Part shown: positions 18,107-28,692 of the stretch, piece by piece | Layout of the letters: each line of letters begins with the position of its first letter | Position numbering within the stretch: position 1 is the stretch's first letter | Source of the DNA: Armatimonadota bacterium | Lineage (GTDB): Bacteria; Armatimonadota; Fimbriimonadia; Fimbriimonadales; GBS-DC | DNA length: 28,692 bases | Assembly: GCA_037445735.1 (NCBI GenBank) | Contig: JBBIJY010000030.1 | Coordinates: forward strand, 1 to 28,692 | Reading direction: 5' to 3' | Translations under genes and position numbers: made by a program | Notes under the pieces: generated by a model | The model's database searches: none | Told to the model about the DNA's origin: nothing | What the model saw: only the letters and a program-made list of their open reading frames with translations

Positions 18107-20155
18107 TCAGCGTGTGGAGGCGGGTTGCTGGCGGGCGAGGCGCAGGATTTCGTTCAGGCGGGGGTCCTGCCAGCCGTACTCGATCAGCTCGCGGGCGAGC
18201 CGCTCGGCTTCCTGCGGGCGCCCCTTGGCAATCAGCAGTCTGCCGCGCACGTAGGCGAGCGCCAGGCGGTCGCCCCCCAGCTGCTCCGCACGCCGATAGA
18301 GCTGCTCGGCAACATCCAGCTCGCCCCGCTCGATATTGACCAGCACACCTGCCAGCCACACGCCCGGACGGCTCAAATCTTTCAGCAGCTGTTCGGGCAG
18401 GCTGTCGCCCGGCAGCGGCAACGCCTGGAATGCCTGCTTCAGCACTGGCTCCGCTTTATCGGGGCGACCCTGCTTGAGATAGAGGATGCCCAGCGCCTGA
18501 TAGCCCATAAACAGCGGGGGACGACCGATTACGTGCTGGCGCACGATGCGCTCCGCCTCCACGAACTCGCCCCGCTCGCCCAGCATAATCGCCAGATTGT
18601 TCCAGCCAATCACATTCGCTGGCTCGATCTCGGTCGCCCTGCGAAAGTGCTGCTCGGCTTCACTGGCATGTCCCAGCTTGAGCAGGGCGACGCCCTTGTT
18701 GACCCAGCCCATGCCCGAATCGGGCGCGAGCTGGATTGCCCGCTCCGCCGCTTTGAGCGCGTCCTCATGCCGCCCCAGCTTATTATACATATCGGCGAGG
18801 TTGGAAAAGCCAATCGGTGAACGCGGCGACGCGCGGGTCATCCACTCCCACAGCGTCAGGTTCTCCTTCCAGTTCGGCATGTTCAGAGCGACGGTTATCA
18901 GCGACGCGCCGAGCCACACCGATGTGCCCAGCATCAGCAGTCGCTGCCCGCTCAATCCCTTCTGGAGCCAGGCTGTCGCCCGGCGATTCAGCGCGGATTG
19001 GTGCACCCACGCGACCGACAGAGCCGCCTGGCACGCCGTCAGCACAAACAGCGTTAGCGGGAAGGTCAGGAACCGCTCCGCCGTGTAGATGCCCTTCGCC
19101 ATCTCCAGCGGGCGCAGGTTCAGCACAGGCAGAAGGCTGATCATGCTCGCCATCAGCAGCCAGCCGACCGCTGGCGCCCGCCGAATCAGCCACACCGCCC
19201 CGACTAAACAGGCAACCATGAAGCCCAGCTGCAGCCATGCCAGCCCGTCATTCAGCGGCACGGGCAACGCCGAATGATGGGCCGGGCGGATGCTGAAAAA
19301 CGGGAACACCACCAGCCCGATCAGCGTCGCGAAGGTGCGCCCGATCAGCAGCAGATGTTGAAGCGGAGTGCCGACCTCCATTCGCGCTTCCGACATGGGC
19401 GGCTGATGCAGATAGCCCAGCGCGGCATAGCGCATGCCCAGATAGACCACGCCCGCCATCAGAATTATCCCATAGGTGCGCCCTTCCGCCTGAAAAATCT
19501 GTCGAACCCGCTCGCGCCAGGTGAGATCGGGCTGGGTCCGATAGCTGTGCGCGAGGTGCCACGCGGGCAGCAACAGGGGCAGCACGACTGCCATCTCCTT
19601 GCACAGCGCCGCCAGCAAAAAGCACAGTCCCACGCCCAGCCGATGCCAGCGTCCCGTGCCCATGCTGATAATCAACGCGAGCAGGAGAAAGGTGGTGACC
19701 GTCAGGTCGTAGCGCGAGGCGATGAAGGCGACGCTTTCCGTCATGGCAGGATGCAAGCCGTAGAGCAGCCCTGCGAGCGCGGTGCCCCAGCCGTGCCGCC
19801 ACAGCCGCCATGCCAGCACCATCACCAGCGCGGTGTTCAGCGCATGCAGCAGCCCATTCGCCCCATGGAACGGCGCAGGGTTCGCCTTCCAGAGCCAGAT
19901 TTGCACCAGCAGGGTGCTGAGCGCGAGCGGGCGAAAATAGTTCGGCGAGAAATCGAGCGGCTGGCGCACCGCTTCCAGCCAGCGGCGCGGGTCGTGATAG
20001 TCCGCCCTGCCGAACAGCACCTGCTCGTCGTCCCACACGAAGCTGAAGCCTGCCGTCGGCACATAAATCAGCAGTGCAAGCAACGGCACCGCCGCCCATA
20101 CCGCCCACATCCAGCCCACACCAGCCCCGCGAATGGCTCGATTGCGTGTCCCCAT
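18107..20155 (-). CDS. TMTC-like GT-C fold membrane glycosyltransferase with C-terminal TPRs
   Basis: F.WDD, YFRPL, FH..N.LLH, HP..TESV.FI..R.D, KE.A and ERF motifs, many TM helices, TPR repeats in the last third. Confidence 0.85.
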   Translation of the reverse strand: MGTRNRAIRGAGVGWMWAVWAAVPLLALLIYVPTAGFSFVWDDEQVLFGRADYHDPRRWLEAVRQPLDFSPNYFRPLALSTLLVQIWLWKANPAPFHGANGLLHALNTALVMVLAWRLWRHGWGTALAGLLYGLHPAMTESVAFIASRYDLTVTTFLLLALIISMGTGRWHRLGVGLCFLLAALCKEMAVVLPLLLPAWHLAHSYRTQPDLTWRERVRQIFQAEGRTYGIILMAGVVYLGMRYAALGYLHQPPMSEARMEVGTPLQHLLLIGRTFATLIGLVVFPFFSIRPAHHSALPVPLNDGLAWLQLGFMVACLVGAVWLIRRAPAVGWLLMASMISLLPVLNLRPLEMAKGIYTAERFLTFPLTLFVLTACQAALSVAWVHQSALNRRATAWLQKGLSGQRLLMLGTSVWLGASLITVALNMPNWKENLTLWEWMTRASPRSPIGFSNLADMYNKLGRHEDALKAAERAIQLAPDSGMGWVNKGVALLKLGHASEAEQHFRRATEIEPANVIGWNNLAIMLGERGEFVEAERIVRQHVIGRPPLFMGYQALGILYLKQGRPDKAEPVLKQAFQALPLPGDSLPEQLLKDLSRPGVWLAGVLVNIERGELDVAEQLYRRAEQLGGDRLALAYVRGRLLIAKGRPQEAERLARELIEYGWQDPRLNEILRLARQQPASTR

Positions 20156-20389
20156 CAGTTCCTGGTGGCTATCATTCCCGCTCCATCTGCCACCTCCTGC
20201 CGAAGAACAGGCAGGAATCTGCCTCCACAGGGAGAATCGGTTGCATCAGGAGGTGAGCGTAGAGGAAGCGCCATACGAATGGACGCCTCTGTTGCTTGCC
20301 GGCTGAATTTTGAGCGCGAGTGGCGCAGCGAATAGAAGCGGGGTATGCCCGCGTGCAATGAGGCGCAACGGGCGTCAAGGGTTTTAACG

Positions 20390-20442
20390 AAAAACAGTTT
20401 CTGATGGTAGCCAGTGAAGGCGCGGGCTACCAGCCTGTTTTT
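20390..20442. terminator. Possible bidirectional terminator hairpin
   Basis: AAAAACAG..TGGTAGCC-N12-GGCTACCA..CTGTTTTT. Confidence 0.4.
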
Positions 20443-20501
20443 GCGTCTTCTGCAACCTCCTTCCTCCTTTTGAACTCAAATCCTCGCTTGCAGTGCCCCC
20501 C

Positions 20502-20530
20502 TTGACAAACGCGCCCGGATGTGCTATATT
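20502..20530 (+). promoter_or_regulatory. Near-consensus sigma70 promoter of the toxin operon
   Basis: TTGACA, 17 bp spacer ending TGC, then TATATT (extended -10). Confidence 0.8.
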
Positions 20531-20577
20531 TAAGAGCAGGTAAAACGACCAGGCACAACCAGAGGCGGAGGCGAACG

Positions 20578-22421
20578 ATGTTCGGGAAAGGCAACACAGG
20601 GATTGCAGGAAACCACCCTCACCGCCGTAATTGTGCGGGGGGGGGAACTATAGTTCGAGCGACCGACTGACCGCGATTCGACGCCGATGCTGCCCGGCGC
20701 TGGCACGGGTTGTTCTGCTGTTTCTGGGCATTACGGCGGGATATGTATCGCTTCAAGCGCAGTCCAACAACAATTTGCAAGTCGCAATTGGACACAACCG
20801 GCTGGTGCTTTTAAATGCTGTTCCCAGTGGCTATGGCTACTTTGAAGTGCCGGACACGGTTTCCTCGCAGGAATTGGGTTTGGAGTATGAATGCCCATCA
20901 CCTCAGGAAGGTCAACCACCTTACTCTCCTGCCTGCGAATATTACCCGATACCGCTTTTCCCTTACCATCGCATCATTATGTGGGTAAATGACGATTCGG
21001 GCTGGCAGCCAGCTACTATAATAAGAGATGGAAACGTTATACGCGTCAACACATGGCAGCGCTTGCAACTACCAGGTAATCATGACACTGTAAGTTTTTC
21101 ACTTCCGGGTGAGACTGAAGAGCGTACCTATCGGGTCTATCTGGGAGACTGGATTCCGACACAGGAGCCGGGGCATCTTGTATTTGTGCCGTACCCGTAC
21201 CCATCCGACAACGCGCCTTCCGCATGGGAAGGGGATACAAAAACAGAAAGAGACTTGATAGTGATTGTGGATGCATACGGCTATTACTGGCAGTTGTGTT
21301 CTCGCAACTGGATTCCACCAGGCGAGACTGAGACTCCACCAGAAGGCGAAACTGCGTGGACGAATGAATATCTCTGCGATTATTCGTGGCAGTGCCCAAC
21401 CTGTTGTCCAGATAATCCGCCCTGCTGGACCAGGCGTGATGGCTGGACAGGTAAGCCCGATTTCAATGGCTCGTATGGTTTCCCGCATCTATGTGGCTGG
21501 TTCCAGTTGGTCTGTAAAAGGTGGGCAGGGGAATATTATTTTTGCCGTAGCAAATGGAAGTTTGTATGTGTTGGCGGGCGCGATCTTCGTCATCCAAGGG
21601 CGCATGTTCTTTTCAGAGGCAAAGTGACCTCGTTGCCCATCAGTGCAGGGATTCCCGAGTCGGCGGATGCGGCGGTGGATAGCCGTCCTGTGTGCCCTGA
21701 GCCGCAGGCGCCACCCACTTTTGCAAAGTTTGGGCGCTATGCCTATCTGGGCGGGCTGTTCGTGGGGCAGGTGCCATGGTTTTATGGCAACCGCTATGAT
21801 TGGCAAACCTCGCCCGATCTGTCGGGCACGGGACGTACCCTGCTGAAGTTTTACAATTACACTGTCTCTCCCGATAATTCCCGTAATTCCACCAACTTTC
21901 CCACCTCTGTATTTGCAGCTTGCCTTTCGCTGGCTTACACCGGCACGCCGCAGGGCGTTGCCGCCAGCAGCCCCTCTCCAAAACAGATTGGCGTGGTCGC
22001 TGTGCCCCGCAGCGACTGGGACGAAAACAGCGTCAGCTGGCAGTTTCTGCAAGAGAATAACCTTGCCGGAGCATTCACGAACACCCAGTGGGTGGGCTGG
22101 ATAGGCTGGACGGTGAACCTCAACGAGTTGCTCGCTCCTCTTCCTCCTGAAAATGCTCTGGACGATCAGGGTCAGATTGTCATCCGCTCGGAGCGCGACT
22201 GGGAGCGCAGCTGGCAGCAAATCAAGCGGGTGGTAATCCCTTTGAACAGGTGGCCAGTCCAGGACAACTCTCCATTCCTCTCGTTGCTGCTGGCGCTCTA
22301 TCCGGAAGTAGAGTTTGGTCGCGACCTCTCGTCGTATGTCTGGTACTACTTCTTCGGTAAAGATTATCCAGCGACTAATGGGCGCACCTGTCCGCGCCTG
22401 TGGTATGTCTGGCAACAATAA
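20578..22421 (+). CDS. Secreted Cys-rich protein with C-terminal DNRLRE-like domain, out of frame at a G9 tract
   Basis: GGAGG-N6-ATG 20578 stops at 20670 with G9 but would join the 596 aa ORF with G10 or G7. Signal-like RVVLLFLGITAGYVSLQA, and GRTLLKF...ACLSL...WDENSVSW resembles DNRLRE. Confidence 0.75.
20637..20645 (+). repeat. Poly-G (G9) simple sequence tract
   Basis: TGTGC-GGGGGGGGG-AACTAT. Confidence 0.9.
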
Positions 22422-22434
22422 CAGGAGGTGGGTC

Positions 22435-23472
22435 ATGAAGCGGCTTCTTTCGGGACGGCACAAGTTGGTCTGGTGGCTGGCGAGCTTCCTGACGGCTTGC
22501 CTGATGCTGGCAGGCGTCGCATGGTGGCTGCAGCGGGCGTCGCGCCCGCACACTCGCCCGACTCACATCGTGCGCCCTGCGCCTGCCCTGCCGCCCGCTC
22601 TGCAGGAGCCGCTGACCCGCGCTGCGACAGCGCCACCCCAGCAGGCAATCGAACTCTACCGCCAGATTGCTCGCCGTAAGCCTGCGAACGCCACTGAAAA
22701 ATATGCTGTCGGCTACGCCCACTACCAGATTGGTAAGCTCTACGCTCAGCAGAAAAAGTTTCGAGCTGCCCGGCAGGCGTTCCAGCAGCTGGCGGAACAG
22801 CGGATTGCTGTGCCCGCCCTGCCCCTGGACCCCAGCTTCGGCACCTGGAGCGAGCAGGGCGCGTATCAGGCAGCTATCTGTGCTTATCAGATTAACCGTG
22901 AAGAAGGCATCCGCCAGATGATTGCGTTTATTGAGCAGCACCCTGAAAGCCCGCTGGTGTATGGTGCCTATAAGCGCATTCTGCGCTGGACGAACGAGAA
23001 GCCACCCGCAGCCGCAGAGCGCGCGTGGCAAAAGGCGCAGGCAGCCCAGACAGAACGGCTCAAGCGCGCCGCCGCCTGCGGACCCAAAGCGCTCGCCTAT
23101 CTCCTGACCCACGAGTTTAGCCAGCCAACCGACTGGCAAACGCTGATGAAAGAGTGCGACACGGACATCGGCGGCACCTCCATGTGGGCACTGGCGCAGG
23201 CAGCCCGCAAGCGCGGACTGAGCGCCATAGGGCTGGAGGTCTCCCGCAAAGGGCTGCTGCAACAGGAGCCACCGTTTCTGGTGTGGAACCCCATCGGGCA
23301 CTACGTCGCGGTCATTGCCAGAGACGGCAACTGGCAGATGTATGATCCCGAAACGAATTCGCTCCAGCCGTGGCTGGAGGCGAGCCTCCCCGATGATTGG
23401 CGTGGAGCGATTTTACTGATACGCTCACGAGCAACACAGTACGCACAGCAGAACGGAGGTACAGAGCGATGA
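22435..23472 (+). CDS. Membrane-anchored TPR protein with C-terminal C39-family cysteine peptidase domain
   Basis: AGGAGGT RBS, N-terminal TM, TPR-like helices (AHYQIGKLY), CGPKAL...GTSMWALAQAARKRGL...HYVAV...YDP giving a Cys-His-Asp triad. Confidence 0.85.
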   Translation: MKRLLSGRHKLVWWLASFLTACLMLAGVAWWLQRASRPHTRPTHIVRPAPALPPALQEPLTRAATAPPQQAIELYRQIARRKPANATEKYAVGYAHYQIGKLYAQQKKFRAARQAFQQLAEQRIAVPALPLDPSFGTWSEQGAYQAAICAYQINREEGIRQMIAFIEQHPESPLVYGAYKRILRWTNEKPPAAAERAWQKAQAAQTERLKRAAACGPKALAYLLTHEFSQPTDWQTLMKECDTDIGGTSMWALAQAARKRGLSAIGLEVSRKGLLQQEPPFLVWNPIGHYVAVIARDGNWQMYDPETNSLQPWLEASLPDDWRGAILLIRSRATQYAQQNGGTER

Positions 23473-26400
23473 CACACAGGCAGCGTGAGATTCGGTATCG
23501 CTGGTTCCGACGCATCGGCTGGATGGGCATTCTGGCGCTGGGCATTCAGACCGCGGCGCCAGCGGCGGAAGCGGGCGTTCGCACCGTCGAACGCGCCTAT
23601 CGTCGCTATCAGGCACAGCGTGCGAACCGCCCGGAGGCGCCACCCGATGTGCGCGTGCTGCGCAAGAGCGAGATGCTCCACCTCAAAGGGCGCGGACGCA
23701 TCCCCAGCCTTGCAGGGCAAGCCAAGTGGGATATTATCGATAACGGCGTGAATCTGCGCACGCGCAACTACACCTACACCGCCACCGATCTCACCCTGCC
23801 AGGCGCGATTGGCATCCCCGTGAGCGTGGTGCGCACCTGGAACGCCAACGACGACCGTGAAGGACCCTTCGGCATCGGCTGGAGCTGGAGCCTCGATGTG
23901 CGTCAGGCAGCGGGCGGGCTGATCAAGCGCAAAGCCGCCCCCAGCCGCACCGTGCCCGCTCAGATCAACAACGGGCGGAACATGCCCGTGGCTAAGATAA
24001 CGGCTGGAAGTGGCGGTCCTTCTGTTCAGGTGTTTACCGTAGACGGCGCCCAGTGTCAGGACGCCAGCGGCGACCAGTGGATTGCCTGGCGCGACGCCGA
24101 CGGGCTGTACACACCACCCCCATGGGACCACAACGAATACGAAAGCACCTACCAGTCGGTTCGTATGGGCAGTGGAGAGAACCAGTACCTGCGGGAGTAC
24201 GCCGTAAGCACAAAAATCACCACACCTGACGGTACGGTCTACTTCTATGAAACAGTGCCACAACCAGACGGCTCACTTGTGGTGACAGACAGCAACGGCA
24301 ACGAGGTTTATGCCGAGCAGGTGCTGAAATGGGTGGAGGACCGGCACGGTAACCGCACGACCTACACATATCAACAGGCGGAGGTTCTACATACATACGA
24401 CACTTCCTCTGGCGAGCGTGCGAGCCGATGGGTCTGGAAACCCTTCGTCCAGCAGGTGACCAACGCCTGTAACTACAGCCTGGTTGTTCAGTGGAACTTT
24501 GCGCCTGGCGCTCGGCAGGTGTTCCATCCGCGTGTTCGGCAGGTCAGCAGTTATGCGCCAGACGGCGCACTGCTGGAAACGATTGAGTATGTTTACCCTG
24601 ATGAGTCCCGATCGGTGCGACAAGTATGGCGTCATCGCGAGGGTGCAAGTCGCCTGCTTGCGGCGTATGAATACACCAGCTGGCGCGTTCGCGATGAATA
24701 TTGTTCCTACCTGCCCCCAGGGTATAGCTGCATTGAAACTGATTTGCTCAGCGAAATTCGTGATGCTGATGGAGTAAAGACTCAAATTTTGTATAACTCT
24801 GAGATACCTGACAATCAGGATAGACACTGGTACCGTGTAGCGGTCTCTTCTCTTGCTTTGCCAAGTGGAGAAATTCGAAACTACCTAGACCTTCTGGCGA
24901 TTGAGCCTTTTACACCTGAAGAAATGCTTGGTTGTGTTGTTCAAGTTTACTACAATGCTGATGGTTCATGTATAGAGCGTAAGATATTATACGAACAGTA
25001 TGGAATGGATTTTGGGGATCCGATAGATGGTAGCTTTGCTATGCGTGTTCAGTTGGTCGGTTCTATTCTTCCTACCTTTGCCCCAGATTCTCCCTACCAA
25101 ATCACAGAAACTCGTATATATGGTGGTATCACACAAAACTTGAGAGTAAGCATCAAAGGAGATTTGTTTGCTTGGTTAATACGATCTTCCATAGCTTGTG
25201 GAATAGCAGAATTTGATCACTACTTCAGATTATTATCTCCAATTTTGGATAGATTCACTGACGAAGACCGTCGTTCAGCATATGTATTCGATCGCCTTTC
25301 TGCTCGTGTTCCTCTCGTCCAAAACACATACCTTGATTATAATTGTTTCGGTCAGCCACTTAGAGTGATACAAAGCCGTCAAGAATGGATTAATCGAGGC
25401 AATGGGTATTGGCAGCTGCTCACTGAGACACTCACCATCCAGCAAACCGAATATTATGGCAAGGAGTTCTACTATCAGAAAGCGTGGGAGAAGGACGCGA
25501 AGGGACGCACTATGCGCTATTTCTACCACAGCCGCAACGCCCCGCAAGGCTACAAGGGGCAGCTGCAAGCGGTCTATATGGACAGCATTTCAACTACCTA
25601 TCCTGTGTCTGAAGTGCTGGAATACAATCAGAACGGTCAGCCTGTGCTCTCTCGCTCCTTGCAACGGCTCAACCCGCTCCGTTATGTCTATACCAGAACC
25701 TTCTACACCGATAACGAGGGCGAAGGCGACGATGCAACGGGTCAGCCGCAAAAAGTGATTGAAGACTATCGCTATTCGGGCGACACCAGCGCTGCTGCTG
25801 GTATCAACCGTATCAGCACCACTCGCTACGATCAATATGGGCGCCCAATCTATCAGTCTGTCTACGCGCCTGACTCCAGCAGCAACGAGTACGCCAATCC
25901 CAGCCGACTTGTCCGTCGCCTGCACACTGTGTACGAAGAGGGCAGCGATCAGGTGGCGCTGGTAGAACGGGTCAACGCCAGCAACCAGCCCATCCAGCAA
26001 CTGGCTGCCTACACCTATACACCTGCTGGACGCCTGCTCAGCGCTACTGACTACCTTTCGCAAGTGTCTAATCATCTGACTTATGATTCTGCAGGACGCG
26101 TGCAAGCCAGCGAGGAATACTGGCAAAACCAGCTCCGCTACCGATGGGACTATGCTTACACAGGCGCCGACCTGACCAGTAAACAGCTCACAATTTACAC
26201 AGGCAATCAAAGTCAGGTCTGGCGCTGGCACTACAGGAACTATATCACAGGCTCATTTCACCCGTGGAGCCGCGTTTTTACACGCGTGATAATGGAACCG
26301 CCCGCCAACATCTCCGTCCCAGTACCCCTGGTGGTCGATTATGTGTACGATCCGACCGATAAGCTGCGGGGCGTACGCTTCAATGTGACGCCGAATCCTG

Positions 26401-27929
26401 CCCGCGGGGTTCAGGAGCTGCTGGATGAGCCGATGAGCGAGCAGGCTCCCCAGGCGTATGTGTTTGCCTGGTACGTTTATGATTCCCTCGGACGGCTCAA
26501 CGACCTGCGCTACTACAAAGCAGAATGCACTGCCTCCGACCCTAACAATTGCAACGAACAAACTAACTACACATACCAGCCCCTGATGCGCTTTGAGTAT
26601 TTCCAGCGTGATGCGAACTACACCCCTGCTTATGATGCCACGAACAACCGCTTGCTGATGCGCGCTTATGACTATCCCGATTTCAATACGCCGCAGCTGG
26701 TTCGCACCGAGCAGTATGAATATGACGCACTGGATCGGCTTGCTGGGGTCTCCTATAATGGAGGGGCATGGCAAAGGTGGACCTACGATGTAATGGGCAA
26801 CCGTTATGGTGCAGGCAACCCTGCCTATGACGGTTTGAACCGTCTTACACAGTTCGGCAACGCCCCTATCCAGCACGACCTGCTCGGCAACCGCTTGCAG
26901 GACGGCAGGTATCGCTATCAGTGGGACGCCCTGAACCGCCTGATAAGCATGCAAACCTACCAGCAGAGCGGACGCTTTGTGGTGATAGGCGACAGCTGGC
27001 GGTTTGCCTATCGCGCCGACGGCTTGCGGGTGGTCAAAGAGAAGGTGTCGCAGGCAGTGGGTCTGGAGGGTTCGGCAGGAGGTTCGTCGCGGGTGGAGTA
27101 TCTGTATGATGGGCAGATGCCCGTGTGTGAGCAGGAGTTTGTCGGCAGCACTTTGCGCACGAGTCGGGTAAACTTTCTGGGAGCGCGAGGGATAGAGGCA
27201 GTGCTGGCGATAGACCATACGCGGGGTAATCAGGCGCGTTTGAGCTGGTTGCTGTACGATGGGCACGGCAACCTGGTGCGCACGATGGCGTCAGATTACA
27301 CGCTGTCTGGGTTCCAGTGGCGTGGGGTATGGGGCGAGGTGCAGAGTTCGCTGGGTGCTGGCAGGGGCTATTGCGCCAATCTGGGTCATTTGGAGGATGA
27401 GACGGGGCTGGTCTATATGCGAGCGCGATATTATGAGCCTTTGACAGGTCGGTTCATCTCGGAAGACCCTGCGCGGGATGGTGTGAACTGGTATCTCTAT
27501 GCCGATGGGAATCCGGTCAATAGAATTGATTATGATGGAAAGGCTGCTTGGCTTGAGAGCTTTATCAACTGGCTCACTGGTATTTTAGAGAGAGCAGGTC
27601 AATATGCAGTTGCGCCACTCTTGGAAAAAGTTCTGAAGATTCCTAAAATACTCGCAGGTCCAGAAATTTTAGCTGATTTCGTTTTTGGGGTCGCTTGCAG
27701 TCTGGAGAAAATAGCGCGTTCGCTGATACGAGGAGGTCTAACGCATATTGCGGAAGCCTCTGTCTGGCTAAGGGCAGGGATGGCTGGTGGATCACTGGGG
27801 CAAATGGCTCTGGGGAGTTATATGGGGGCGCGTTCTCTTATAGGAGGTGCCCTAGAAGTGGCGGCAGGAATTGCGCTTCTGTCGCTTGCGTATTTCCTTG
27901 CAGGAACAGCTTATGGGCTGGCAGAGTAG
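23469..27929 (+). CDS. Rhs/YD-repeat polymorphic toxin with Sec signal peptide
   Basis: GGAGGT RBS and ATGA overlap with the upstream stop. Signal peptide ending AAEA, DUF6531-like GVNLRT..DL.LPG..RTWN..GPFGIGWS, YD repeats, core YMRARYYEP.TGRFISEDP...NPVNRIDYDG. Confidence 0.95.
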   Translation: MTHRQREIRYRWFRRIGWMGILALGIQTAAPAAEAGVRTVERAYRRYQAQRANRPEAPPDVRVLRKSEMLHLKGRGRIPSLAGQAKWDIIDNGVNLRTRNYTYTATDLTLPGAIGIPVSVVRTWNANDDREGPFGIGWSWSLDVRQAAGGLIKRKAAPSRTVPAQINNGRNMPVAKITAGSGGPSVQVFTVDGAQCQDASGDQWIAWRDADGLYTPPPWDHNEYESTYQSVRMGSGENQYLREYAVSTKITTPDGTVYFYETVPQPDGSLVVTDSNGNEVYAEQVLKWVEDRHGNRTTYTYQQAEVLHTYDTSSGERASRWVWKPFVQQVTNACNYSLVVQWNFAPGARQVFHPRVRQVSSYAPDGALLETIEYVYPDESRSVRQVWRHREGASRLLAAYEYTSWRVRDEYCSYLPPGYSCIETDLLSEIRDADGVKTQILYNSEIPDNQDRHWYRVAVSSLALPSGEIRNYLDLLAIEPFTPEEMLGCVVQVYYNADGSCIERKILYEQYGMDFGDPIDGSFAMRVQLVGSILPTFAPDSPYQITETRIYGGITQNLRVSIKGDLFAWLIRSSIACGIAEFDHYFRLLSPILDRFTDEDRRSAYVFDRLSARVPLVQNTYLDYNCFGQPLRVIQSRQEWINRGNGYWQLLTETLTIQQTEYYGKEFYYQKAWEKDAKGRTMRYFYHSRNAPQGYKGQLQAVYMDSISTTYPVSEVLEYNQNGQPVLSRSLQRLNPLRYVYTRTFYTDNEGEGDDATGQPQKVIEDYRYSGDTSAAAGINRISTTRYDQYGRPIYQSVYAPDSSSNEYANPSRLVRRLHTVYEEGSDQVALVERVNASNQPIQQLAAYTYTPAGRLLSATDYLSQVSNHLTYDSAGRVQASEEYWQNQLRYRWDYAYTGADLTSKQLTIYTGNQSQVWRWHYRNYITGSFHPWSRVFTRVIMEPPANISVPVPLVVDYVYDPTDKLRGVRFNVTPNPARGVQELLDEPMSEQAPQAYVFAWYVYDSLGRLNDLRYYKAECTASDPNNCNEQTNYTYQPLMRFEYFQRDANYTPAYDATNNRLLMRAYDYPDFNTPQLVRTEQYEYDALDRLAGVSYNGGAWQRWTYDVMGNRYGAGNPAYDGLNRLTQFGNAPIQHDLLGNRLQDGRYRYQWDALNRLISMQTYQQSGRFVVIGDSWRFAYRADGLRVVKEKVSQAVGLEGSAGGSSRVEYLYDGQMPVCEQEFVGSTLRTSRVNFLGARGIEAVLAIDHTRGNQARLSWLLYDGHGNLVRTMASDYTLSGFQWRGVWGEVQSSLGAGRGYCANLGHLEDETGLVYMRARYYEPLTGRFISEDPARDGVNWYLYADGNPVNRIDYDGKAAWLESFINWLTGILERAGQYAVAPLLEKVLKIPKILAGPEILADFVFGVACSLEKIARSLIRGGLTHIAEASVWLRAGMAGGSLGQMALGSYMGARSLIGGALEVAAGIALLSLAYFLAGTAYGLAE

Positions 27930-28374
27930 GCACAAGAACAGAAGAGATAACATCAGATGGTCAAACGACTCTCTGGCGTATGGGTGCGCCTATGGGGTTG
28001 TCGCTGTAATCACGCTGGTCGTGGTCGTTCCTGTGTTGGTGATCTTGCAGCTCTATTTCCCGCACTACTGGTGGCTCTGGATGCTGTTAGGCACTGCTCT
28101 TTCTTTTTACATATTTGTATTTATATATATTCCAGCAATAGAAAAGACGAAAGCTCATGGGCCAAGCGAAGTGGATTGGGAAGAATTGAAGTTGTTGAGA
28201 AAGAAATATCCAAATTTATGGCGGCAGGTGGTTCAGGAGCGTCTTGAACAGGGTTTGCTTGCCACCATCAGGCATGCTCTTCGGGGTAGTCAGCGAAGCA
28301 TGGATGAAGAGTTTTTAGAGCGCGTGCGCCAGTTAGAAAGCAGCAGCACCACCGATGATGAAAGGCGCAACTAA
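27913..28374 (+). CDS. Putative immunity protein with two TM helices
   Basis: Overlaps the Rhs stop, AT-rich, AGGA 7 nt before ATG 27913, two hydrophobic segments followed by a charged tail. Confidence 0.7.
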   Translation: MGWQSRHKNRRDNIRWSNDSLAYGCAYGVVAVITLVVVVPVLVILQLYFPHYWWLWMLLGTALSFYIFVFIYIPAIEKTKAHGPSEVDWEELKLLRKKYPNLWRQVVQERLEQGLLATIRHALRGSQRSMDEEFLERVRQLESSSTTDDERRN

Positions 28375-28384
28375 GTATTATGTG

Positions 28385-28692
28385 ATGGGCAACCGTTATG
28401 GAGCAGGCAACCCTGCCTATGACGGTTTGAACCGTCTTACACAGTTCGGCGGCGCCGCCATCCAGTACGACCTGCTCGGCAACCGCTTGCAGGACGGCAG
28501 GTATCGCTATCAGTGGGACGCCCTGAACCGCCTGATAAGCATGCAAACCTACCAGCAGAGCGGACGCTTTGTGGTGATAGGCGACAGCTGGCGGTTTGCC
28601 TATCGCGCCGACGGCTTGCGGGTGGTCAAAGAGAAGGTGTCGCAGGCAGTGGGTCTGGAGGGTTCGGCAGGAGGTTCGTCGCGGGTGGAGTA
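28385..28692 (+). repeat. Orphan Rhs cassette 5' part, direct repeat of 26793-27100 (runs off window)
   Basis: 308 bp copy with about 6 mismatches by eye, open frame MGNRYGAGNPAYDGLNRL..., no obvious RBS. Confidence 0.92.

Follow-up and report, generated by a model that had tools for sequence, protein, structure and literature searches.

The window, a 28,692-nucleotide stretch of Armatimonadota DNA (contig JBBIJY010000030.1 of assembly GCA_037445735.1), carries a gene for a stand-alone, anchored peptidase of family C39 that is immediately followed by the gene for a large Rhs/YD toxin (Table 1). Behind its signal-peptide-like N-terminus the Rhs protein displays a motif of the double-glycine leader type, and an earlier note on this DNA had read the pair as bacteriocin-style leader processing outside the cytoplasm, serving a Sec-exported Rhs toxin. 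The comparative and modeling evidence described here supports this reading. As the note had observed, the two genes overlap: the peptidase stop codon TGA (23470-23472) shares bases with the Rhs start codon ATG (23469-23471), forming an ATGA at 23469-23472. A GGAGG lies 9 nucleotides 5' of the Rhs ATG, and the window sequence has an AGGAGG 6 nucleotides 5' of the peptidase ATG.

Table 1 Features of the peptidase-Rhs locus and its surroundings (positions in the window; aa, amino acids; ORF, open reading frame; AF2, AlphaFold2).
Feature	Position	Strand	Basis or remarks
ORF upstream of the peptidase gene, 596 aa from TTG (true start uncertain)	20631..22421	+	Cys/Trp-rich, signal-like N-terminus; possible third component, DNRLRE-like secreted protein
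Gene for anchored helical-repeat and C39 peptidase, stand-alone	22435..23472	+	345 aa
N-terminal anchor of the peptidase, residues 1-35	22435..22539	+	K/R-rich start, hydrophobic helix, lipobox-like L-T-A-C with Cys22 at 22498-22500; AF2 helix 3-35
All-helical TPR-like repeat region, residues 54-212	22594..23070	+	AF2 helices and invariant alignment columns, with the invariant block SEQGAYQAAICAYQ
Peptidase_C39 domain, residues 212-332	23068..23430	+	Pfam, triad conservation, fold
Gene for Rhs/YD toxin, 1486 aa	23469..27929	+	Pfam and NCBIfam-type profiles
Signal-peptide-like N-terminus of Rhs, residues 1-35, ending ...AAEA	23469..23573	+	6 K/R, then an uncharged 12-mer, mean hydropathy 1.6
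Predicted propeptide, residues 36-75	23574..23693	+	variable at 36-58, conserved leader from about 59 (PDVRV...)
Double-glycine-type leader motif, residues 61-76	23649..23696	+	predicted scissile bond Arg75-Gly76, between 23693 and 23694
DUF6531 domain at residues 92-145, where the predicted mature Rhs body starts	23742..23903	+	E 6e-10, 39.8 bits (cut-off 24.1)
Rhs-associated core (TIGR03696), residues 1306-1357, usual boundary before the C-terminal toxin	27384..27539	+	E 1.5e-16, 60.7 bits (cut-off 32.5)
Candidate C-terminal toxin region, about 129 aa	27540..27926	+	hydrophobic, Gly/Ala-rich; no family
ORF for a small membrane protein, overlapping the end of Rhs; candidate immunity gene	27913..28374	+	role suggested by position
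Orphan Rhs fragment running off the contig end	28355..28690	+	28380-28679 repeats 26788-27087 at 98%

The C39 peptidase and the leader motif of the Rhs protein

Pfam assigns Peptidase_C39 (PF03412) to residues 212 to 332 of the peptidase with an E-value of 1.4e-11 (44.8 bits, cut-off 22). The catalytic positions Cys215 (23077-23079), His289 (23299-23301) and Asp304 (23344-23346) fall exactly where the triad had been placed before, and all three are invariant in 18 of 18 aligned relatives. This alignment comprises 18 of the 27 relatives found, fragments and near-duplicates being excluded. In a large protein collection 26 of the 27 match PF03412; one relative (P0024) is labelled candidate division WOR-3 by its source and the proteins of two family members are labelled Armatimonadota by theirs. 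Comparison with PDB sequences using phmmer gave weak matches (best E 0.058, PCAT1), so a fold search was needed. The AF2 model based on the 18-relative alignment has a mean pLDDT (per-residue confidence) of 88.6 and consists of a long N-terminal helix (3-35), a disordered stretch, helical repeats (54-212) and an alpha/beta domain (215-331). Its ten best Foldseek matches in the PDB are all C39 or C39-like domains (E 2e-5 to 7.5e-4), with a TM-score on the target of 0.65-0.71 for isolated C39 domains. The top of this list, at E 2e-5 to 2e-4, includes the C39-like domain of HlyB (3zua, the best), PCAT1 (7n87), ComA (3k8u) and LahT150 with its leader (6mpz). By profile, fold and triad, the window peptidase belongs to family C39.

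The former description of this protein as a transmembrane TPR protein holds for the N-terminal helix and the all-helical repeats and only in part for the TPR label. TPR_6 stays under its Pfam cut-off (E 0.003, 18.5 bits against 26.3), and TPR/BamD proteins appear among the weak, low-ranking Foldseek matches of the model. The claim that no ABC transporter is involved stands. Pfam finds no ABC domain in the 345 residues, and the protein is thus not a bifunctional exporter of the PCAT/AMS type. Moreover, the genome of this bacterium (99.2% complete) gives one PF03412 match in total. As this match is the window peptidase itself, the genome holds no PCAT exporter.

In addition to DUF6531 and the Rhs-associated core, the Rhs protein matches YD_repeat_2x (19.4 bits, cut-off 15.8), while Pfam RHS_repeat gives no match in it at E-values up to 0.01. 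From its sequence we infer a signal-peptidase cut after Ala35. The leader core, LRKSEMLHLKGR followed by G and also given as LRKSEMLHLKGRG, covers residues 64-76 (23658-23696) and begins 30 residues after the end of the signal-peptide-like segment. It thus lies behind the signal peptide and before DUF6531, as the earlier note had it. With Arg75 set as -1, the register reads V61 at -15, L64 at -12, E68 at -8, M69 at -7, L72 at -4, G74 at -2 and Gly76 at +1. This reproduces the spacing recognized previously and adds the Val at -15. Compared with the bacteriocin leader consensus LSxxELxxIxGG, all defining positions match save -11 and -1, and the hydrophobic residues at -4, -7, -12 and -15, the Glu at -8 and the Gly at -2 that mark a double-glycine leader are all present. 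Classical leaders of this type stand at the very start of cytoplasmic precursors devoid of a Sec signal, and in this the window motif differs from them.

In the same genome, the relaxed pattern L-x3-[ED]-[MLIV]-x2-[LIVMF]-x-G-[GASRK] occurs within the first 120 residues of 14 out of the 7821 six-frame ORFs that have 100 aa or more, the window Rhs included. A stricter version with S/T at -11 occurs four times in 1.89 million residues. A single occurrence of the motif is therefore mildly unusual, and it is conservation that lifts it above chance. One of the pattern matches, in an ABC ATPase, was discarded, as this protein is cytoplasmic and the match most likely due to chance. A pilin-like protein (G000:C2, minus strand, 616-aa ORF) carries LAQQELERLKGR about 20 residues past its prepilin-type N-terminal helix. 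This stretch ends in ...L-K-G-R as the Rhs leader does and could be either a chance likeness or a second peptidase substrate.

Long, short and fused forms across the Armatimonadota

We surveyed 401 genomes of Armatimonadota for the pairing of C39 and Rhs. The profile of the TPR-like plus C39 peptidase matches 93 of these genomes, and DUF6531 is found in 157. Nine of the 11 close loci fetched include DNA 3' of the peptidase gene, and in all nine the next gene encodes a motif-bearing Rhs. The motif is identical or nearly identical in the nine, while the stretch of 20-odd residues that separates it from the signal peptide varies. For the wider family, the 29 best loci outside the own genome of the window were examined. 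In 17 of them, as read by eye, a signal-peptide Rhs lies directly 3' of the peptidase gene and carries L-[ST]-x-x-E-M-x-x-[LAW]-x-G-[RKS] just before its DUF6531-like part. Three further loci have the motif Rhs elsewhere in the cluster, either in the order Rhs, small ORF, peptidase (L071, L072) or with one gene between (L080), so that long TPR-C39 genes are clustered with a motif Rhs in 20 of the 29. The remaining loci show Rhs pieces whose N-terminus is outside the view (three; L016, L030 and L035), stop at a contig edge (four) or have no Rhs in sight (two; L020 and L041).

Across 24 aligned Rhs N-termini, which share 25-42% identity outside the close group, Leu at -12, Glu at -8, Met at -7 and Gly at -2 are each at least 90% conserved. 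The residue at the position of Gly76 varies, being L, T, Y, I, S, Q or A in relatives. By hand count, at least 32 of the roughly 135 C39 places are followed on their own strand, no more than 1 kb downstream, by a DUF6531 place; this lower bound was drawn from 150 of the 278 DUF6531 places and from at most five C39 candidates scored per genome. The pairing of C39 and Rhs is phylum-wide and recurring.

Short C39 proteins of 245-325 residues show the same arrangement. In all eight of their loci a signal-peptide Rhs follows whose motif has the canonical form L-[ST]-x-x-E-[ML]-x-x-[IM]-x-G-A (as in LSMKEMSNILGA and LTAFELKRITGA), with R replacing M/L at -7 in one of them and Ala at -1 in all eight. 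In a third class peptidase and toxin are joined in a single chain. Searching with the N-terminal part of one fusion retrieved six proteins (P0028-P0033), each of which is built from C39, L-x3-E/D-...-G-G (as in LSPEELRNAWGG and LAEVEMNSIYGG), Cys-Cys-Gly, a linker of low complexity and Rhs. One of the fusions is resolved by Pfam into TPR (170-227), C39 (265-381) and DUF6531 (434-510), followed by RHS repeats, and its motif sits at 395-406. In two further fusions the segment after C39 ends in Gly-Gly-Cys-Cys, with a weaker match upstream. AF2 modeling of the N-terminal 461 residues of one fusion from a six-row alignment was uninformative (mean pLDDT 53.2, below 50 from residue 314). Conservation of the motif in Rhs proteins next to or fused to C39 domains, a check that the earlier note had proposed, was thus found in the close loci, in the aligned N-termini and in versions that end in GA or GG.

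Two features of the fused proteins deserve mention in their own right. The Gly-Gly of all six is followed by an invariant Cys-Cys-Gly (P0028-P0033; L070:3731-5113 (-)), and after a cut the fused Rhs would start with two Cys, for which a disulfide, acylation or metal binding are possible. Another set (L060, L075-L078 and L086) has C39 at the N-terminus of a DUF6531-Rhs of 1700-1900 aa, with a conserved Cys-rich segment after the peptidase.

The residue at -1 of the motif goes together with the peptidase subtype. Short relatives keep Asp directly before the catalytic Cys and have Ala at -1, as found by script for seven of eight; in the eighth, L082, it is the same, the GA motif having been read separately. 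Long forms have no Asp before the Cys, but A, L, M, Q, T or E, and the residue at -1 is mostly Arg, otherwise Lys or Ser. In fused forms -1 is Gly. The Gly at -2 is invariant in the long, short and fused classes, as a cut after -1 would lead one to expect, and the catalytic Cys, His and Asp are kept in short and fused forms as well.

As controls we picked 20 DUF6531 places without a listed C39 neighbor from the top and the middle of the list. Two of the 20 proved to be fusions, and no C39 ORF was present beside the other 18 within the 1.7-3.1 kb fetched. The motif is absent from 16 of these 18 DUF6531-Rhs proteins, and those 16 have PAAR-like, Ig-like or other N-termini; the remaining two (L047 and L051) carry it. 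The Rhs of L054, although of the same subfamily as the window protein, has no leader; a short signal sequence runs straight into the conserved body, and PF03412 finds nothing in its genome (96% complete).

The location of both partners was judged from their N-termini. Five of the eight short C39 relatives have lipoprotein lipoboxes, which places their C39 domain outside the cytoplasm. The L-T-A-C of the window peptidase fits a lipobox that is kept in part among relatives, so that the protein may have either a lipid or a signal anchor. On the Rhs side, an uncharged hydrophobic 12-mer is present in all 37 tabulated N-termini, and its end lies 8-61 residues ahead of the listed match to the pattern; for L018 this match is a stretch 10 residues short of the true motif. 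The 12-mer is preceded by 2-6 K/R in 35 of the 37, and many end in Ala-x-Ala-like sites. These features suggest that peptidase and Rhs are both exported, and the two appear to share a compartment, a mismatch being what the earlier note had named as evidence against its proposal.

Predicted complex and competing readings

Modeling of the peptidase-leader complex had been suggested as a further check. We predicted the complex of peptidase residues 60-345 (18-row alignment) with Rhs residues 36-88 (24-row alignment) and obtained a score of 0.76 (runs 0.76, 0.78 and 0.75), while the best of three controls scored 0.00. Of 80 solved complexes 58 attain the score mark, as do 2 of 110 mismatched pairs; since the prediction used our own alignments, these counts are a rough guide here. 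At least 64% of contacts are common to the runs, and the partner has a pLDDT of 58 or more. The confident interface comprises, on the peptidase, residues 212-213, 215-216, 245-251, 254, 265-270, 272-273, 276-277, 284, 288-290, 306, 323 and 325, including the catalytic Cys and His; on the Rhs it comprises 58-64, 66 and 68-76, so that it takes in the motif through to the residue following the predicted cut. The model supports binding of the leader motif to the catalytic face of C39 and bears on binding alone, not on cleavage.

Based on sequence conservation and this model, we consider it probable that the C39 peptidase binds the Rhs leader and cuts it at or next to the Gly74-Arg75 site. The two genes would then form a translationally coupled maturation module for a Sec-exported Rhs toxin. 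The Rhs would be made with an ordinary signal peptide (1-35) and a propeptide of about 40 residues, the last 17 of which would constitute a double-glycine-type leader with Arg at -1. The neighboring peptidase, tethered to the outer face of the cytoplasmic membrane by its N-terminal helix or a lipid anchor, would show its helical-repeat domain and an active C39 peptidase to the periplasm. After Sec export and loss of the signal peptide the leader would enter the C39 groove as in ComA, LahT and PCAT1. Cleavage after Gly74-Arg75 would let the mature Rhs start at Gly76, just before DUF6531. Such a cut may serve to mature or license the toxin cage, to time its action, or to pass the toxin on to an outer-membrane step.

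Several points weigh against this proposal. Known C39 enzymes accept Gly, Ala or Ser at -1, and the window motif and most long-form partners depart from this in having Arg. An oxyanion-hole Gln a few residues before the Cys and an Asp adjoining it are features of ComA-type C39 domains. Both are absent from the window peptidase, where the context is RLKRAAA-C, a caveat already attached to the stretch RAAACGP, and with both missing the case for catalytic competence comes down to conservation of the triad. Two motif-bearing Rhs genes (L047 and L051) have no C39 gene within the roughly 2 kb fetched. Their genomes hold C39 elsewhere and, since none is nearby, action of the peptidase in trans would be required. 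No recognizable GG-type motif is seen in six of the fused C39-Rhs proteins (L060, L075-L078 and L086). The match between subtype and -1 residue could stem from shared ancestry, and the loci are relatives within one phylum, so that the counts are not independent events. The success of the complex prediction may reflect the model's memory of, or a likeness to, the solved C39-leader complexes 6mpz and 6v9z, and its output lists interface residues without pairing a leader residue to Cys215. Export was judged from sequence features, and the cut, its exact bond and its purpose are what we infer from all of the above.

The absence of Gln and Asp would also fit a C39 domain that binds the leader without cutting it and, in the manner of the C39-like domain of HlyB, serves as a periplasmic receptor or chaperone to which the still unfolded N-terminus of the Rhs is bound. 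That domain is the best structural match of the peptidase, and a complex prediction confined to binding agrees with such a role. HlyB-type C39-like domains have no catalytic Cys, however, whereas Cys215, His289 and Asp304 are invariant in the 18 aligned proteins and the triad is kept in short and fused forms. Furthermore, the invariant Gly at -2, and in the fusions Gly-Gly followed by Cys-Cys-Gly, resemble a cut site. We therefore regard binding without cleavage as unlikely.

Small residues at -1 and -2 are needed by known C39 enzymes, and the window offers G-R-G, with a Gly on each side of Arg75. The available text of Rouse et al. states GG, sometimes GA, for C39 cut sites (PMC5557850). The peptidase may thus cut the propeptide at another nearby bond, after Gly74 or Gly76, or act after prior trimming by another protease. 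Yet the hydrophobic positions -15, -12, -7 and -4 together with Glu at -8 put the invariant Gly at -2 in all three classes, and Gly76 itself is not conserved, which leaves a shifted or secondary cut with little probability.

A different view takes the motif as a structural element of the N-terminus of this Rhs subfamily, with C39 acting on the DNRLRE-like protein, the immunity protein, the cell wall or target cells instead. Conservation in close relatives runs unbroken from the motif into DUF6531, L047 and L051 have the motif without a C39 nearby, and a third gene family recurs in the clusters (see below), all of which this view would accommodate. It is difficult to reconcile with a last motif residue that changes in step with the peptidase subtype, with fusions that put the motif right after C39 and before a low-complexity linker, outside the Rhs fold, with a motif-less Rhs of the same subfamily in a genome that has no C39 match, and with a complex prediction that passes while its controls score 0.00. 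We consider it quite improbable.

Finally, C39 might face the cytoplasm and cut before export by an unrecognized transporter, the hydrophobic Rhs N-terminus not being a Sec signal, as characterized GG-leader processing by PCAT/AMS transporters is all cytoplasmic in the available text of PMC5557850 and the anchor helix of the window peptidase has an ambiguous charge balance (4 K/R on each side); the lipoboxes of the short relatives, the constant position of the motif 8-61 residues past K/R-rich and hydrophobic segments, the lack of a second C39 and hence of a PCAT in the genome, and the existence of exported C39 enzymes such as FapD make this highly implausible.

Neighboring genes, related systems and significance

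The 596-aa ORF upstream of the peptidase gene matches no Pfam family and gives a weak match to the NCBIfam profile DNRLRE_dom (E 0.015, 15.3 bits, under the cut-off of 34). It is kept 5' of the peptidase gene in eight close loci with 41-49% identity. BLASTP against all fetched loci found these close relatives and one weak match in L054, and nothing else. DNRLRE-domain genes adjoin Rhs at L071:6107-7000 (-), L072:3-911 (+), L051:475-1905 (+) and L080:2033-3508 (+); the NF033679 profile is matched with E 1e-67 in L080 and with 7e-7 to 7e-6, below the cut-off, in L071, L072 and L051. A secreted DNRLRE-domain protein may thus be a third component of the system.

Downstream, the succession of Rhs core, C-terminal region, small membrane ORF and orphan fragment resembles the arrangement that polymorphic Rhs toxin loci usually have. 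The C-terminal 129 aa of the Rhs have no Pfam match at E-values up to 0.1, and the membrane ORF behind them has a weak match to DUF2207_C (E 0.005, below the cut-off). Our guess is that of a membrane-active toxin with a membrane immunity protein. A 300-nucleotide direct repeat of 98% identity marks the orphan Rhs C-terminal cassette 3' of the immunity candidate. Two other genomes (G181 and G021) contain arrays of several orphan Rhs C-terminal cassettes between Rhs and the TPR-C39 gene; there, up to 7.5 kb 5' of the TPR-C39 gene held such cassettes and no Rhs N-terminus. A divergently oriented gene of the window, upstream of the cluster (18107-20155 (-)), encodes a protein of 682 aa whose N-terminal half crosses the membrane several times and which has strong TPR repeats at 430-655; it is probably unrelated.

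The C39 domains of the PCAT/AMS exporters (ComA, LahT, PCAT1) share Pfam family, fold and Cys-His-Asp triad with the window peptidase. Their LSxxELxxIxGG leaders have the same register as the window motif, and relatives of the latter end canonically in GA or GG. In contrast to these exporters, in which C39 is fused to an ABC transporter, the window C39 is unfused, the genome has no such fusion, and the domain is probably anchored outside the cytoplasm. It also lacks the Gln and Asp before the Cys that distinguish ComA-type enzymes. Bacteriocin leaders sit on small peptides, while that of the window stands behind a Sec signal on a 1486-aa Rhs and has Arg at -1. N-terminal processing of large exported or secreted proteins is known from two other systems. 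In Rhs effectors of type VI secretion systems (T6SS) the N-terminal cleavage is autocatalytic, without a C39 enzyme. LapG, a periplasmic cysteine protease of a family other than C39, cuts the giant LapA near its N-terminus at a di-alanine site and thereby releases the adhesin. Neither system is known to use a GG-type leader.

The closest precedent is FapD of the Pseudomonas Fap amyloid system, a stand-alone, Sec-exported C39 peptidase of the periplasm; secretion of the Sec-exported Fap cargo depends on its catalytic Cys (Rouse et al. 2017, PMC5557850). In the available text of that paper the substrate and cut site of FapD are stated to be unclear, and the authors consider that its class may use another recognition sequence; our literature search found no later paper naming its target. 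As described there, FapD works with the outer-membrane channel FapF and amyloid subunits, whereas the window cargo is an Rhs toxin and the window peptidase has in addition an anchor and a helical-repeat domain. No Fap family was detected in the six window ORFs scanned (18107-28690), FapF not having been searched genome-wide. Given FapD and the phylum-wide spread of the pair, the idea of leader processing repurposed outside the cytoplasm stands as a reading, but not as something unprecedented or a single oddity.

C39-like domains have also been tied to Rhs or CdiA polymorphic toxins in the form of Tox-PL-C39 and StbD-CT. The available text of Zhang et al. (2012, PMC3482391) lists C39-like domains in polymorphic toxins solely as C-terminal toxin domains, and StbD-CT is described in the available text of its preprint as auto-processing and cutting Gly-Gly motifs (bioRxiv 10.64898/2026.05.07.723447). 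As presented in these texts they are delivered C-terminal toxins. The window C39, by contrast, is separate, upstream and anchored (N-terminal in the fusions), and its predicted substrate is the toxin's own propeptide. Giant Omnitrophota proteins have an N-terminal C39 near signal peptides for which self-cutting was suggested (bioRxiv 10.1101/2023.11.21.568195); unlike the window pair, they come with no leader motif, Rhs cargo or split two-gene form in the available text of that preprint. Our literature search found no paper describing a C39 peptidase that processes the N-terminus of an Rhs protein. The Rhs cargo and the Gly-Arg specificity appear to be new for an exported C39.

A wider scheme is possible, though tentative, in which the Armatimonadota have an Rhs route apart from T6SS and T7SS (type VII). 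The toxin would be exported by Sec with a periplasmic leader, and a cut by the anchored TPR-C39 gatekeeper would license the cage for an outer-membrane step, possibly with involvement of the DNRLRE neighbor. Gly-Arg, Gly-Ala and Gly-Gly would then be matched pairs that insulate parallel toxin systems.

Overall, conservation and modeling of the pair point to an undescribed maturation step for Rhs toxins. With this locus a stand-alone and probably exported C39 peptidase gains a concrete candidate substrate and a bond at which it is predicted to cut. The forms known as split, short and fused, in which Arg, Ala or Gly at -1 goes along with changes beside the catalytic Cys, constitute a natural series for C39 specificity. 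To the biology of Rhs toxins, whose known N-terminal processing is autocatalytic, the pair would add a dedicated trans-acting maturation protease and a leader tag, and this tag would make Sec-exported Rhs toxins of this kind recognizable from sequence.

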